From a virus (lineage: Duplodnaviria; Heunggongvirae; Uroviricota; Caudoviricetes), in the IMG/VR virus record IMGVR_UViG_2671180353_000009, positions 1 to 18,167 of that record: DNA of 18,167 nt; one strand, written 5' to 3'. Below, one piece after another: positions 6,882 through 18,138 of the stretch. Every line of letters begins with the position of its first letter. Position 1 is the stretch's first letter. A program made the translations under genes and the position numbers. The notes below the pieces were generated by a model. It was not told the DNA's origin, did not search any database, and saw nothing but the letters and a program-made list of their open reading frames with translations.

Positions 6882-7211
6882 ATGCTGAGCAGAGAGGACT
6901 TTTACATGATAAAGCAAATGCGCCAGCAGGGCGCGTACATCGTCGATATTGCGACTCAGATTGGTTGCTCTGAACGGACGGTCAGACGCTACCTCAAATA
7001 CCCTGAACCGCCAGCCAGAAAGACCCGCCACAAAATGGTTAAGCTGAAACCGTTTATGGATTACATCGACATGCGCCTGGCAGAGAATGTCTGGAATAGC
7101 GAGGTTATCTTCGCGGAGATTAAGGCAATGGGTTATACGGGCGGACGTTCCATGCTGCGTTACTACATCCAGCCCAAACGTAAAATGCGTCCGTCAAAAA
7201 GAACAGTTTGA
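6882..7211 (+). mobile_element. istA: IS21-family transposase IstA, N-terminal (HTH) fragment only; IS remnant
   Basis: MLSREDFYMIKQMRQQGAYIVDIATQIGCSERTVRRYLK...[25 protein letters not shown] matches the IS21-family IstA N-terminus as I recall it; the ORF stops where the catalytic core should begin. Confidence 0.65.
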
Positions 7212-7316
7212 GGTGTACTGGCAATAGCGGACACTACCATTTGTTCTTTTTGACGGACGCATTTTACGTTTGGGCTGGATGTAGTAACGCAGCATGGAAC
7301 GTCCGCCCGTATAACC
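7131..7316. repeat. Large palindrome: 75-bp arms (7131..7205 and 7242..7316) around a 36-bp spacer
   Basis: The last 25 codons of the istA fragment (GYTGG...PSKRT) are re-encoded on the minus strand directly downstream; the same peptide appears in minus-strand track ORF 7194..7502. Confidence 0.85.
7209..7251. repeat. 43-bp direct repeat, copy 1 (TGAGGTGTACTGGCAATAGCGGACACTACCATTTGTTCTTTTT)
   Basis: Matches 18096..18138 near the window end, as read by eye. Confidence 0.7.
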
Positions 7317-7351
7317 CAACCGTTTCAGGCGGGCTTTTTTGTGGGGTGAAT

Positions 7352-10300
7352 ATGGCAGTACGGATTTCAGGTGTACTGAAAGATGGCGCAGGTAAGCCGA
7401 TACAAAACTGCACCATTCAGCTAAAGGCCAGGCGCAACAGCACCACGGTGGTGGTGAACACAGTGGCCTCAGAAAACCCGGATGAAGCCGGGCGTTACAC
7501 AATGGACGTCGAGTATGGTCAGTACAGCGTCAGTCTGTTGGTGGAGGGATTCCCGCCGTCACACGCCGGGATTATCACCGTATATGAGGACTCAAAGCCG
7601 GGCACACTGAATGATTTCCTCGGTGCAATGACGGAGGATGATGCCCGTCCGGAGGCACTGCGCCGTTTTGAGCTGATGGTGGAAGAGGTGGCGCGTAACG
7701 CGTCCGTGGTGGCACAGAACACGGCAGCCGCGAAGAAGTCAGCCAGTGATGCCAGCACATCAGCCCGTGAGGCGGCAACCCATGCGACTGATGCTGCAGG
7801 CTCAGCACGCGCAGCCAGCACATCAGCCGGGCAGGCCGCGACGTCGGCTCAGTCAGCGTCTTCCAGCGCAGGAACGGCATCAACAAAGGCCACTGAAGCA
7901 TCAAAAAGTGCTGCCGCTGCAGAGTCCTCAAAGAGCGCGGCAGCTACCAGTGCCGGTGCGGCGAAAAAGTCAGAAACGAATGCGGCAGCGTCACAACAAT
8001 CAGCAGCCACTTCTGCATCCACCGCGACCACGAAAGCGTCAGAAGCTGCCACCTCAGCCCGGGATGCGGCGGCCTCAAAAGAGGCAGCGAAATCATCAGA
8101 AACGAACGCATCATCAAGCGCCAGTAGTGCCGCTTCCTCGGCAACGGCGGCAGGAAATTCCGCGAAGGCGGCAAAAACGTCCGAGACGAACGCCAGGTCT
8201 TCTGAGACGGCAGCGGGACAGAGCGCCTCAGCTGCGGCAGGCTCAAAAACAGCGGCTGCGTCGTCTGCCAGTGCCGCGTCAACAAGTGCCGGGCAGGCCT
8301 CAGCCAGTGCTAGCGCCGCCGTAAAATCGGCAGAAAGCGCTGCATTGTCCGCTTCAACAGCCACAACGAAGGCTGGCGAAGCCGCTGAACAGGCCAGCGC
8401 AGCAGCGAGGTCTGCATCCGCAGCGAAGACATCCGAAACGAACGCGAAAGCCTCGGAAACCAGTGCAGAATCCTCAAAAATGGCAGCTGCATCGTCCGCC
8501 AGTTCGGCGGCGTCATCGGCATCATCTGCGTCTGCTTCAAAAGATGAGGCGAGCAGACAGGCATCAGCAGCGAAAGGCAGCGCCACGACAGCATCCACGA
8601 AGGCGACAGAGGCAGCTGGAAGTGCGACGGCGGCAGCACAGAGCAAAAGTACGGCGGAATCCGCGGCAACGCGCGCCGAGACAGCAGCAAAACGGGCAGA
8701 GGATATTGCATCCGCCGTGGCGCTGGAGGATGCGAGCACGACGAAAAAGGGGATAGTACAGCTCAGCAGTGCAACAAACAGCACCAGTGAAAAGCTGGCG
8801 GCAACGCCAAAGGCAGTTAAAACTGTTAAAGATAGTTCAGTTCAAAAAACTGGCGACACAATGGGAGGGCAGTTAAAAATCAGCACGATAAATGCTCTTC
8901 GAATATTCAACCAAGCCTTTGGCCTTATTTTTAGGCGTTCCGAAGATCATCTTCATCTTATTCCGACTAATGAAGGGGAGGGGGAAAATGGAGACATCGG
9001 TTCATTAAGACCATTCTCTATAAACTTAAGATCAGGGTTGGTGTCCATCGGTAATGGACTAAAAGTTGGTGGTAGTGTTACTGGTAATTTGACCGGAAAC
9101 GCAGATACTGCGACCAAGATCAAGACAGCACGTAAGATTGGGGGCGTGGCATTTGATGGATCGGCAGATATCAACTTGCCTGGAGTCAACGCTACCGGTA
9201 ATCAAAACACTACAGGTAATGCTGCGACCGCCACGAAACTTCAGGCAGCCAGAACGATTAACGGTGTGTCATTTGATGGTAGTGCAAATATCACATTGAC
9301 CCCTTCAAATATTGGGGCATTGGCATTAACTGGAGGGACTCTTTCAGGTGGTTTAACTGCTGCTGGTGAGGTTATTTCAAGGTCAGCAAATGGTCTGCGT
9401 ATTGCCTATGGCAACTATGGATTCTTTATCCGAAATGATGGATCAAACACATATTTTATGTTGACAGATTCGGGTAACAGTCTTGGTACGTACAATAGCT
9501 TAAGGCCGTTTATAATTAGTAACCATACTGGCAATGTTACAATTGCAACTAAATTAAACGCGAGTGGTGGTATCACTGGATCTTTATCGGGTAATGCAAG
9601 CACAGCAACCAAATTGCAAACTGCAAGGACAATTAACGGCGTAAAATTTGACGGCTCGGCAAATATTGAAGCGTTTCCGCCAGGTGTTCCGCTGCCGTGG
9701 CCATCAGATACACCACCTGCAGGTTATGCAATCATGCAGGGGCAGACGTTTGATAAGGCAGCATATCCGAAACTGGCTATTGCCTATCCTTCAGGTGTTA
9801 TTCCAGATATGCGCGGCTGGACAATCAAGGGCAAACCCGCCAGTGGCCGGGCCGTATTGTCTCAGGAACAGGACGGCATTAAATCGCACACCCACAGCGC
9901 CAGCGCATCCAGTACGGATTTAGGGACGAAAACCACATCGTCGTTTGATTACGGCACTAAATCCACGAATAACACCGGGGCGCATACGCACAGTCTGAGT
10001 GGCTCTACGGGGTCTGCCGGTGTTCATACTCATGGTAATGGTATTCGTTGGCCAGGAGGCGGCGGTTCTGCGTTAGCATTTTATGATGGCGGTGGGTTCA
10101 CTTATGTCCAGAATTCACAGTATCAAGTAAGCCCGGAGACTTCTTCCTATAGATCGTATTATCAACGTATTCAGACACAGTCAGCAGGTGCTCATACCCA
10201 CTCGCTGTCTGGTACTGCAGCAAGTTCTGGCGCACATGCACATACTGTAGGTATTGGTGCGCATACGCACTCCGTTGCGATTGGTTCACATGGACACACC

Positions 10301-10378
10301 ATCACCGTTAACGCTGCGGGTAACGCGGAAAACACCGTCAAAAACATCGCATTTAACTATATTGTGAGGCTTGCATAA
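7352..10378 (+). CDS. stf: Side tail fiber protein Stf (mosaic)
   Basis: Lambda Stf-like N-terminus [38 protein letters not shown]..., Ala/Ser/Thr-rich shaft, central module of three ~40-aa GNAxTATKLQxARTINGVxFDGSANI repeats, and lambda Stf-like C-terminus with H-x-H motifs ending [14 protein letters not shown]. The track ORF begins at 7208 because of an in-frame upstream Met; I prefer 7352. Confidence 0.9.
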
Positions 10379-10962
10379 TGGCATTCAGAATGAGTGAACA
10401 AGCACGGACCATAAAAATTTATAATCTGCTGGCCGGAACTAATGAATTTATTGGTGAAGGTGACGCATATATTCCGCCTCATACAGGTCTGCCAGCAAAC
10501 AGTACCGATATTGCACCACCAGATATTCCTGCTGGCTTTGTGGCTGTTTTCAACAGTGATGAGGCATCGTGGCATCTCGTTGAAGACCATCGGGGTAAAA
10601 CGGTTTATGACGTAGCGTCAGGGGACGAGTTATTTATTTCTGAACTCGGTCCGTTACCGGAAAATGTTACCTGGTTATCGCCGGAAGGGGAGTTTCAGAA
10701 GTGGAACGGCACAGCCTGGGTGAAGGATACGGAAGCAGAAAAACTGTTCCGGATCCGGGAGGCGGAAGAAACAAAAAACAACCTGATGCAGGTAGCCAGT
10801 GAGCATATTGCGCCGCTTCAGGATGCTGCAGATCTGGAAATTGCAACGGAGGAAGAAACCTCATTGCTGGAAGCCTGGAAAAAGTATCGGGTGTTGCTGA
10901 ACCGTGTTGATACATCAACTGCACCGGATATTGAGTGGCCTGCTGTCCCTGTTATGGAGTAA
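10378..10962 (+). CDS. tfa: Tail fiber assembly protein Tfa
   Basis: 194 aa, [54 protein letters not shown]... near-identical to lambda Tfa as recalled; start overlaps the stf stop (TAATG). Confidence 0.92.
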
Positions 10963-17147: not shown

Positions 17148-17434
17148 AAATCTCCAGAACGCAACAGGACGCATTCTAACGCTGTTTTCATTACTCGGTA
17201 TAGGGATAGGTGATGTGTGTTTAATGCGTCTGTGCGCTTGTTTTGTGCCTTATTTTGCATTTTCATAATGCGGAAGAGAACACGGAAAACCTTAAAATTA
17301 ATTATTGGGGTATTTAAGGCTATTTTCAGGTGATTTAAGGGTATTAAACTTGATTTAATTGATTAAAATATAAACAGATAATTATGTATCTTATTGATTT
17401 ATAAGGTTGTTTTTAAGTAAAGGTAAATAAAAAA

Positions 17435-17463
17435 TAAATAGCCATAAATAGCTATAAATACAT
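17435..17463. repeat. Three tandem ~10-bp units (ATAAATAGCC / ATAAATAGCT / ATAAATACA) in an AT-rich region; iteron-like or regulator-binding repeats
   Basis: Read directly; further phased repeats (ATTTAAGG, twice, 21 bp apart) at ~17313 and ~17334. Confidence 0.4.
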
Positions 17464-17487
17464 CTTAATACCTATATCCCTTCCCTT

Positions 17488-17823
17488 ATGGCTAGATTGC
17501 GAGAGGTGCTTAACGCGATTTTCAGCGCCCCCCGATCTGGAAAATCCAGAATCCCCAAATATCAGCAAGGAATTTTCTTGCGTAATCAACATCGTTTTTA
17601 CCTATTAAATCATTACACAGAAAGCCTTTCTGTAATGTCTCTCACTAAACTTTCACTAAACACGAGAATGATCGGTTTTATGTCGGATCAGATGCTAGAA
17701 ACAGCACCACGTCTCACAAGGGCTGTAAGCGATGAAACCAGTGTTTATGCGGGTGCAGGTCAAAATATAGGCCAAAATCCATTTAACATAATAAATGTTA
17801 TATGTGCTAAGGAACACATATAA
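17488..17823 (+). CDS. Hypothetical protein (111 aa), weak coding evidence
   Basis: Track ORF downstream of the AT-rich repeat region; no recognisable motifs. Confidence 0.25.
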   Translation: MARLREVLNAIFSAPRSGKSRIPKYQQGIFLRNQHRFYLLNHYTESLSVMSLTKLSLNTRMIGFMSDQMLETAPRLTRAVSDETSVYAGAGQNIGQNPFNIINVICAKEHI

Positions 17824-18095
17824 CGCCTTGAATTGATGTATCAGTGGAAAAGTGATGGATTTTTTACGTAGGAGCACGAAAGGGCTTCTATTGACTTTTG
17901 TGTGCTATGAAATATAATTAAAGTTTTTTGTTTTTATTGTGTGATGTGGTGGGTTACACAGGGGAATAGATTAAATGGTGTTCTGTTTATACAGGTTTAT
18001 TTGTTAGATCAACAATTTGGCATTTCTAAACAGATGTTTGAACGTTGCCAAATGTCTTGACAACACAAGAAAAGGGCTTGCTATGCCAGGCATTA

Positions 18096-18138
18096 TGAGG
18101 TGTACTGGCAATAGCGGACACTACCATTTGTTCTTTTT
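18096..18138. repeat. 43-bp direct repeat, copy 2
   Basis: Matches 7209..7251; the flanks differ (TTAAGCAGCC follows here, GACGGACGC follows copy 1). Confidence 0.7.

Follow-up and report, generated by a model that had tools for sequence, protein, structure and literature searches.

Features of the window and its 43-nt repeat

The window (the whole stretch analysed here, 18,167 bp) is one entire draft contig, CXEZ01000092.1, apparently from Shigella sonnei. It carries the prophage genes lom, stf and tfa, an NTPase gene and an att remnant that comprises the 3′ part of thrW only; a tRNA scan of the window found none. Positions 1–4952 and 7320–16325 are 100% identical to E. coli LR883012.1, in which lom and stf are adjacent. 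A plus-strand block of 2,367 nt (4953–7319), foreign to the locus, interrupts this otherwise 100%-conserved junction in the window.

Two exact copies of TGAGGTGTACTGGCAATAGCGGACACTACCATTTGTTCTTTTT are present, copy 1 at 7209–7251 and copy 2 at 18096–18138, both on the plus strand with 0 mismatches, and none of 200 shuffles gave two matches. The preliminary description of this DNA had reported a 43-bp direct repeat at these positions, with different flanks and with copy 1 in the spacer of a palindrome, and our analysis bears it out on each point. On exact alignment the match is perfect over its full length, neither shorter nor imperfect, and cannot be extended, as the left flanks read CAGTT (copy 1) and CATTA (copy 2) and the right flanks GACGGACG and TTTAAGCAGCC, respectively. 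The palindrome arms around copy 1 (7129–7216 and 7231–7318) are 94% complementary and include a perfect portion, 7129–7205 against 7242–7318; the region has a predicted DNA fold of −108 kcal/mol (z = −22.6). A detail absent from that description is that the final 10 nt of copy 1, TGTTCTTTTT (7242–7251), are also the reverse complement of 7196–7205. Because these 10 nt are shared with the inverted arm, the 43-nt length of the repeat is fixed by a junction with a 10-nt overlap and not by a natural repeat boundary.

IS600 as the source of both copies

The 43-mer is, almost beyond doubt, the outermost 43 nt of the orfB-proximal (right, IRR) end of IS600, a 1264-bp member of the IS3 family that was first described in S. 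sonnei. In E. coli 8479, an identical 43-mer is followed directly by the RefSeq feature ‘IS3-like element IS600 family transposase, programmed frameshift’; that insertion arose independently, 21 bp away from the right-end site of the window. In the comparison locus L004, the 43-mer bounds an element of exactly 1264 bp with imperfect TGAGGT... terminal inverted repeats, both ends beginning TGAGGT, sharing GGACACT and giving TG...CA termini, and the element has the same length at the thrW-adjacent site in L018, L019, L021 and L022. Target duplications of 3 bp accompany the insertions, GTT for the copy in IS21 and TTA for the window's right-end site. The IS600 ORFs score 334 bits against NCBIfam NF033516 (IS3 family transposase; cutoff 160), the two ORFs match Pfam HTH_Tnp_1 and rve, and the programmed −1 frameshift of orfA/orfB and the DDE (rve) catalytic domain are in place. 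Full copies bounded by the 43-mer thus resemble known IS600 in length, in their imperfect TG...CA inverted repeats, in their 3-bp duplications and in the orfA/orfB frameshift, and the tip sequence is identical to that of annotated copies. The element itself is no different in the window, which holds only 43 nt and 72 nt of it.

Counted genome-wide, the sequence is both multicopy and IS-linked: the 72-nt end occurs at 4,932 places in 2,665 of the 5,426 complete E. coli genomes, at most 43 times per genome, dispersed and with unrelated flanks. IS600 is one of five insertion sequences that have expanded in all Shigella (PMC7373316). The initial suggestion that the repeat may be an IS terminal sequence was therefore right, the element being IS600, and the alternative of a small mobile or repetitive element falls away, since each copy is one tip of the 1264-bp IS600.

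The preliminary description had also suggested a comparison with IS21-family ends, and the true IS21 left end, at 6781 (TGTCAGCGCCAGTG...), proved unlike the 43-mer. There is next to no chance that we are dealing with a terminal repeat of the IS21 family or with a separate miniature mobile element tied to the istA remnant: the 43-mer does lie directly after the istA fragment and starts with TG like many IS ends, but intact IS21 runs on as CGCTTCG past nt 428 with no trace of the 43-mer, the first 30 nt of the 43-mer are absent from the 5.1-kb pSS_046 locus (L047) that holds a complete IS21, neither a second inverted end nor a target duplication surrounds the 43-mer alone, and wherever its context is complete it is the tip of a 1264-bp IS3-family element. 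The different IS21 end and the full IS3-family elements bounded by the 43-mer refute this reading. A solo (MITE-like) element was likewise considered and rejected, as the lone IS600 tip at 7209 leads into inverted IS21 flank and not into the other IS600 end, TGAGGTAGCCTGAG....

Copy 2 belongs to a longer match, the first 72 nt of IS600 (18096–18167, plus strand, with the transposase on the minus strand), within which the contig ends. The reverse complement of the orfB stop codon, TTA, lies at 18139–18141, and the target triplet TTA, duplicated in complete genomes, at 18093–18095. Within the thrW-adjacent region, the insertion comes 273 nt downstream of a 111-aa ORF. The four complete S. sonnei genomes L018, L019, L021 and L022 all have a full 1264-bp IS600 at the same flank, in the order CTATGCCAGGCATTA, IS600, TTACACG, and the site is empty in E. 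coli (L002), where it reads GCATTACACGAAAT. Since complete S. sonnei genomes have the full-length element at this exact site, the contig simply breaks at a repeat. IS600 copies show no polymorphism at nt 73, their differences being found from nt 285 onward, and so the 72-nt tail looks like the k−1 of a de Bruijn assembler.

Copy 1 and the block between lom and stf

Copy 1 (7209–7251, plus strand) is an exact match to IS600 nt 1–43, reading inward from the orfB-proximal (IRR) tip. It is unambiguously IS600 for nt 1–33 only, nt 34–43 (7242–7251) being common to the inverted IS21 arm. Directly upstream lies a genuine IS21 left end, nt 1–428 of that element (6781–7208, plus strand), which comprises the left inverted repeat and the 5′ part of istA. 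This fragment shows 100% identity with the plasmid-borne IS21 copies of pCFSAN029787_01 (L003) and S. sonnei pSS_046 and gives a partial IS21-family match in NCBIfam. IS21 is itself inserted in a truncated tail-fibre N-terminus (ORF 6427–6795) and is cut by IS600 after nt 428. The truncated istA ORF (6882–7211) takes its stop codon from the TGA of the IS600 tip (7209–7211); the assembly collection indexes an identical 109-aa product in 323 blocks. IS21 is merely the target of the IS600 insertion and does not contain the 43-mer.

The ancestral state of copy 1 is preserved in loci L004–L011, which have the order stfN′, IS21 (1–428), full IS600, remainder of istA. Copy 1 matches exactly the terminus of the complete 1264-bp IS600 that interrupts IS21 at nt 428 in L004, where a GTT duplication surrounds IS600 within IS21. 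In related genomes of ~4.8 Mb, this full-length IS600-in-istA arrangement lies in a different, defective lambdoid prophage remnant beside sitABCD. Positions 4953–7251 of the block are colinear with this sit-linked remnant, here called B, through the J C-terminus, lom, the stf N-terminus, IS21 1–428 and IS600 1–43, and are 99.9% identical to L004 8072–10370. The block is then completed by a 77-nt fold-back and a single orphan A at 7319. The fold-back forms the right arm of the palindrome, inverted IS21 nt 349–425 (7242–7318, minus strand), which is the reverse complement of 7129–7205 and aligns by BLAST over 77/77 positions with the reverse complement of L004 10248–10324. The arm ends at IS21 nt 349, such that 80 nt of IS21 flank the IS600 junction. 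No SNP distinguishes the chromosomal IS21 fragment from the pINV copy at nt 349, pSS_046 being identical over nt 1–428.

Junction alignments place an 11-nt duplication, CCGTTTCAGGC, on either side of the block (4942–4952 and 7320–7330, both plus strand); its left copy spans the loop of the lom terminator hairpin and some of the stem. A comparison at offset 1496 shows that 4954–5113 is identical to 3458–3617, a 160-nt exact repeat of the J genes of prophages A and B, and the colinear part of the block begins at the first base of this repeat. The contig itself likewise opens, at position 1, exactly where a 98-nt exact A/B repeat begins. At 6330–6331 the block has TA, the prophage A type, whereas CC is found in those real B loci that were examined. 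The fold-back join has an overlap of exactly 10 nt, two of the three block junctions lack microhomology, and the sequence is clean, with 0 N. There are no Chi sites in the window that could mark the ends of a captured fragment, and visual inspection of the block ends revealed neither inverted repeats nor a known IS end that would convincingly explain the 11-nt duplication.

The block was absent from every other contig with the same J protein. The truncated J′ product with its called start at 5025 is on record only in this contig, and no record was found of the product read from the first possible start (5013–5738). A 40-mer spanning the fold-back junction had 0 matches in the viral_contigs and genome_contigs collections, in which Shigella is hardly represented.

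Origin of the block and relation between the copies

The block is most likely foreign to the lom–stf interval of the thrW prophage, and we consider it probable that 4953–7319 is a scaffolding or gap-closure artefact. Under this explanation, a contig of the sit-linked prophage would have been wrongly placed and ‘closed’ by a pipeline of the Velvet, SSPACE and GapFiller type. The contig meets two separate IS600 insertions, each of which is found in other genomes too, and the repeat is 43 nt long only because copy 1 is cut by the join to the adjacent IS21 reverse complement with a 10-nt overlap. GapFiller's default is to trim 10 nt from each gap edge and then to accept a closure if the overlap reaches 10 nt (PMC3446322), and the fold-back overlap, equal to this minimum, supports a false join. 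So do the starts of the block and of the contig, both at the first base of A/B repeats, the A-type TA at 6330–6331, and the restriction of the block to this one assembly, with flanks 100% identical to a clean lom–stf prophage. Furthermore, short reads cannot thread an exact two-copy repeat of 2.3 kb, and a true extra copy would therefore be non-contiguous unless the original locus had lost the segment.

The combination of SSPACE and GapFiller ‘can lead to false joins’ according to the paper describing the Sanger pipeline, which counted 4–10 misassemblies per benchmark genome (PMC5320598). The entries of its supplement that we consulted include S. sonnei assemblies CXFB01–CXFE01, near CXEZ01 in accession space; among those entries we found neighbouring prefixes only, and not CXEZ itself. 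While the identity of the element and the original state of both insertions are shown, we infer the assembly pipeline of CXEZ01 from these neighbouring accession numbers, and the false join likewise from the features above. The window resembles such joins (PMC5320598, PMC3446322) as a draft contig from a single assembly with breakpoints on repeat boundaries, one join at the 10-nt default minimum and an accession that adjoins a batch from that pipeline. It differs in its insert of three junctions, flanked by an 11-nt duplication and ending in an orphan A, to which no exact route could be traced.

Several observations sit less easily with an artefact. The block returns to the same site with the 11-nt duplication, much as a true insertion that had duplicated its target would do, and three consecutive false joins would be required. 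The 80-nt IS21 flank fits k−1 for k = 81 and the 72-nt IS600 tail k = 73. We could trace no exact assembler path through these joins, and an artefact leaves the orphan A at 7319 without explanation.

We also considered that the block might be genuine, a multi-step insertion by template switching or end-joining capture that is private to one isolate, and we assign this roughly one chance in five. Quasi-palindrome or snap-back template switching, as in the models of Ripley and Lovett and at tandem inversion duplication junctions, makes inverted duplications in bacteria. By such a route, synthesis might have left the lom terminator hairpin of the thrW prophage and used the sit-linked prophage as template for 2.3 kb, as far as IS600 nt 43. 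It might then have folded back at a 10-nt inverted repeat (AAAAAGAACA...TGTTCTTTTT, 36 nt apart) created by the IS600 insertion, copied 67 nt backwards past the 10-nt overlap to give the 77-nt inverted arm, and rejoined the locus 11 nt behind the point where it had left. Copy 1 would in that event be a true IS600 vestige of 33–43 nt, with a full IS600 in the same orientation 10.9 kb away. The 11-nt duplication centred on the terminator hairpin, the return to the same locus and the clean sequence free of N all favour such an event, as does a fold-back at the sole 10-nt inverted repeat near the IS21/IS600 junction, which is what quasi-palindrome switching would produce; nor is a palindrome with 77-bp arms and a 36-nt spacer between the perfect arms obviously lethal. 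The likeness to quasi-palindrome switching lies in this passage from a short inverted repeat to a long perfect palindrome. Unlike that process, the window needs two more junctions that are free of homology and a breakpoint on a repeat boundary, and its case is found in no second genome, being known from a single draft assembly. The left breakpoint falls to the base at the start of the 160-nt repeat, for which there is no biological reason and which matches the behaviour of this contig's own end; the A-type allele at 6330–6331 and the second 2.3-kb copy that short reads could not assemble contiguously also count against it. We accordingly judge a natural three-junction templated insertion with a 77-bp-arm palindrome in one S. 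sonnei isolate to be improbable, at somewhat under one in five.

Whether the block is an artefact or real, the two 43-mers are not a functional pair. The preliminary description had proposed that the copies could mediate deletion or inversion of the interval; deletion is possible, with 43 bp marginal, while inversion is excluded for direct repeats. Its view of stf, tfa, the NTPase gene and the att remnant as ‘bracketed’ probably does not reflect a real arrangement, given that copy 1 sits in a block that resembles a false join in a single contig. The idea that the IS600 ends define a composite transposon-like unit mobilizing stf, tfa and the Avs2 gene, or serve as a permanent substrate for the programmed loss of that interval, is highly implausible, for all that the copies are in direct orientation and a defence gene lies between them: copy 1 is one tip without transposase or second end, E. 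coli genomes have the same stf–tfa–Avs2 module without IS600 at either flank, the adjacency is itself doubtful, and a length of 43 bp lies near the minimum for RecA-dependent recombination. Copy 1 amounts to 33–43 nt, the two tips face the same way and provide no pair of outside ends, and among the loci compared none had the 10.9-kb interval with IS600 ends and a 3-bp duplication at another genomic site.

The finding is an ordinary one, the 43-mer being the tip of a well-known Shigella insertion sequence. It carries little biological weight, as any Shigella genome should contain dozens of IS600 ends and both insertions occur elsewhere. Its value is practical: a short exact repeat that ‘brackets’ an interesting interval of a draft contig can be just two IS tips, and before rearrangements are called from oddities within a contig, such as palindromes, microhomology joins or small duplications at the flanks, the reads behind a scaffolded, gap-filled short-read assembly should be consulted. 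If the block were real, it would be a neat natural case in which an IS insertion set off fold-back template switching, still private to one isolate.

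Identity of the 43-bp direct repeat

According to the preliminary description, a 43-mer occurs twice with different flanks, bracketing stf, tfa, an NTPase gene island and an att remnant, with the first copy in the spacer of a palindrome. We found two exact matches to TGAGGTGTACTGGCAATAGCGGACACTACCATTTGTTCTTTTT in the window, both on the plus strand, at 7209-7251 (copy 1) and 18096-18138 (copy 2); two matches occurred in 0 of 200 shuffles, and both left and right flanks differ between the copies, as described. Copy 1 does lie at the centre of a strong palindrome, with perfect arms at 7129-7205 and 7242-7318 (-108 kcal/mol when folded as DNA, z = -22.6), and its final 10 nt, TGTTCTTTTT, are the reverse complement of 7196-7205, a feature missed earlier.

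A search with the right end of the window retrieved E. coli strain 8479, in which the same 43-mer is directly followed by a gene annotated as 'IS3-like element IS600 family transposase (programmed frameshift)' on the minus strand. Because its insertion point lies 21 bp from the window's site, this copy is an independent insertion, which places the boundary of the element at the first T of TGAGG. The element beginning with the 43-mer measures exactly 1264 bp in related genomes (L004 and other retrieved loci). Its inverted ends, TGAGGTGTACTGG... and TGAGGTAGCCTGAG..., are imperfect, and a 3-bp duplication bounds it; its ORFs score 334 bits against the NCBIfam IS3 family transposase (cutoff 160). 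The 43-mer starts at the orfB-proximal tip and ends on the base next to the orfB stop codon, which reads TTA in reverse complement (18139-18141). Judged by sequence, it is the tip of IS600, an already known element. Of 5,426 complete E. coli genomes, 2,665 contain matches to the 72-nt IS600 end, 4,932 in total and up to 43 per genome, and IS600 belongs to a set of five insertion sequences that have expanded across all Shigella (PMC7373316).

The proposal that the 43-mer is an IS terminal sequence was thus correct, but it is a different end from those of the IS21 family, and the alternative of a small mobile element gives way to an IS600 tip at each copy. Upstream of copy 1, IS21 nt 1-428 occupy 6781-7208, beginning with the genuine left end of that element and 100% identical to plasmid IS21; past nt 428 the intact plasmid element continues CGCTTCG, not the 43-mer, ruling out the latter as an IS21 end. 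The remnant retains an ORF at 6882-7211 (109 aa) that comprises IstA residues 1-109 and takes its stop codon from the IS600 tip; the assembly collection lists an identical product in 323 blocks.

The home locus of copy 1 is prophage B, the prophage remnant next to sitABCD. Retrieved long contigs of about 4.8 Mb, which are probably S. sonnei, read J, lom, a truncated N-terminal piece of stf, IS21(1-428), a full IS600, the remaining istA, a second IS600, a DUF4376 gene and sitDCBA. The IS600 inside IS21 has a GTT target duplication; the ancestral copy 1 was therefore an ordinary full IS600 in the sit-linked prophage remnant.

The right end of the contig and the Avs2 gene

The 18,167 bp of the window make up a single draft contig in full, CXEZ01000092.1 (assembly GCA_001248785.1). 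Its stretch 16337-18167 shares 99.95% identity with the region next to thrW in four complete genomes, CP023645, CP019689, CP021144 and CP022459. We take these to be S. sonnei, since CP023646 and CP019696, whose accession numbers lie near those of two of the four chromosomes, are S. sonnei plasmids. These genomes supply the context beyond copy 2: exactly at this right-end site, all four have a full 1264-bp IS600 with a duplicated TTA, and the empty site is seen in E. coli UTME-14. Copy 2 therefore belongs to an IS600 already known from S. sonnei, of which the window holds nt 1-72, the contig just stopping within the repeat. Other drafts stop here too, having 75-127 nt of the element.

The right boundary of the prophage (window 16337 onward, compared with 8851 onward of the retrieved locus L018) corresponds to the thrW (tRNA-Thr) region downstream of proA. 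ARAGORN found no complete tRNA in the window, which therefore retains no more than a partial attR-type remnant. At the position of window 16318-16325, an IS66-family element with an apparent 8-bp duplication is inserted in E. coli LR883012.1 and CP024257.1 (compare 14819-17595 of the retrieved locus L014); the window is without this element, and both genomes diverge from it beyond 16387.

The gene previously termed an NTPase (11500-15954, plus strand, 1484 aa) encodes an Avs2 antiviral STAND NTPase (PADLOC PDLC02164, 1751 bits, nearly full length; Pfam matches only sub-threshold). It lies as cargo between tfa and the attR remnant at the right end of the thrW prophage. This module is also found in several E. 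coli genomes, and the identical protein occurs in 116 blocks of the collection, the retrieved loci including E. coli and probable S. sonnei contigs. Within stf, a 311-aa antisense ORF (7849-8784, minus strand), called as a gene in several assemblies, is probably spurious; it falls in the repeat-rich part of the tail-fibre gene, where direct repeats D3 and D4 occupy 7739-8445.

The block between lom and stf

Positions 1-4952 and 7320-16325 are 100% identical to the thrW prophage (prophage A) of E. coli LR883012.1, in which just 64 bp of intergenic sequence lie between lom and stf. The 2,367 nt at 4953-7319, which contain copy 1, are extra relative to prophage A. This block consists of 4953-7251, which is 99.9% identical to locus B and extends from the C-terminal part of J as far as IS600 nt 43, then 7242-7318, the reverse complement of IS21 nt 349-425, and an orphan A at 7319. 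It is flanked by an 11-nt duplication, CCGTTTCAGGC (4942-4952 and 7320-7330), which takes in the loop of the lom terminator hairpin together with some of its stem, and is nearly symmetric on that hairpin. Both homology-free junctions show a single A beside the duplication; of these, 4953 agrees with locus B and 7319 with neither partner sequence, and neither an artefact nor a biological model explains them. Among 11 contigs on record with an identical J protein, only this one has the block, and the truncated J' product (5025-5738) is likewise recorded only here. Neither outer junction was found in complete E. coli genomes, and the fold-back junction 40-mer is absent from viral and genome collections, in which Shigella is hardly represented.

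We consider the block to be probably a false join, which would have arisen in short-read assembly by a pipeline of the Velvet, SSPACE and GapFiller type. Its colinear part starts at 4954, the first base of a 160-nt stretch identical in the J genes of both prophages, and the left end of the contig (window 1-98) starts on the first base of a 98-nt exact repeat shared by prophages A and B in the K/I region of their tail genes. The start of an independent draft, JBDYBY010000116.1, lies 21 nt deeper in this 98-nt repeat, so one and the same paralogous repeat sets where each of the two contigs begins. The breakpoint at 4954 thus matches the behaviour of this assembly's contig ends and has no biological reason. 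At 6330-6331 the 'B' copy has prophage A's TA, where the real B loci examined have CC, as a collapsed repeat node would give. The fold-back overlap is exactly 10 nt; GapFiller trims 10 nt off gap edges, extends both base by base and by default closes at an overlap of at least 10 nt (PMC3446322). The Sanger high-throughput pipeline, which combines Velvet (k at 66-90% of read length), SSPACE and 120 GapFiller rounds, is called greedy by its authors, who warn that it can produce false joins and count 4-10 misassemblies in each benchmark genome (PMC5320598); their supplement contains S. sonnei assemblies CXFB01-CXFE01, near CXEZ01 in accession space. The 72-nt IS600 tail fits k = 73. Moreover, a 2.3-kb exact two-copy repeat is beyond short-read threading, and a true extra copy would not assemble contiguously.

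Against this, the block resembles a real insertion in coming back to the site it left, with an 11-nt duplication. A false join leaves the A at 7319 and the boundary at IS21 nt 349 unexplained, and no assembler path to the block could be reconstructed, the pipeline itself being one that we infer. A genuine, private insertion by fold-back template switching is nevertheless unlikely.

Consequences for the repeat pair

Whether the block is real or an artefact, the two 43-mers are the tips of two unrelated IS600 insertions, and readings of the pair as a miniature element or a composite transposon are rejected. Of the two rearrangements suggested for the copies, inversion falls away, because direct repeats could support deletion only; deletion is possible, although 43 bp of repeat is weak support for it. 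Should the block be misplaced, the 10.9-kb distance between the two tips does not exist.
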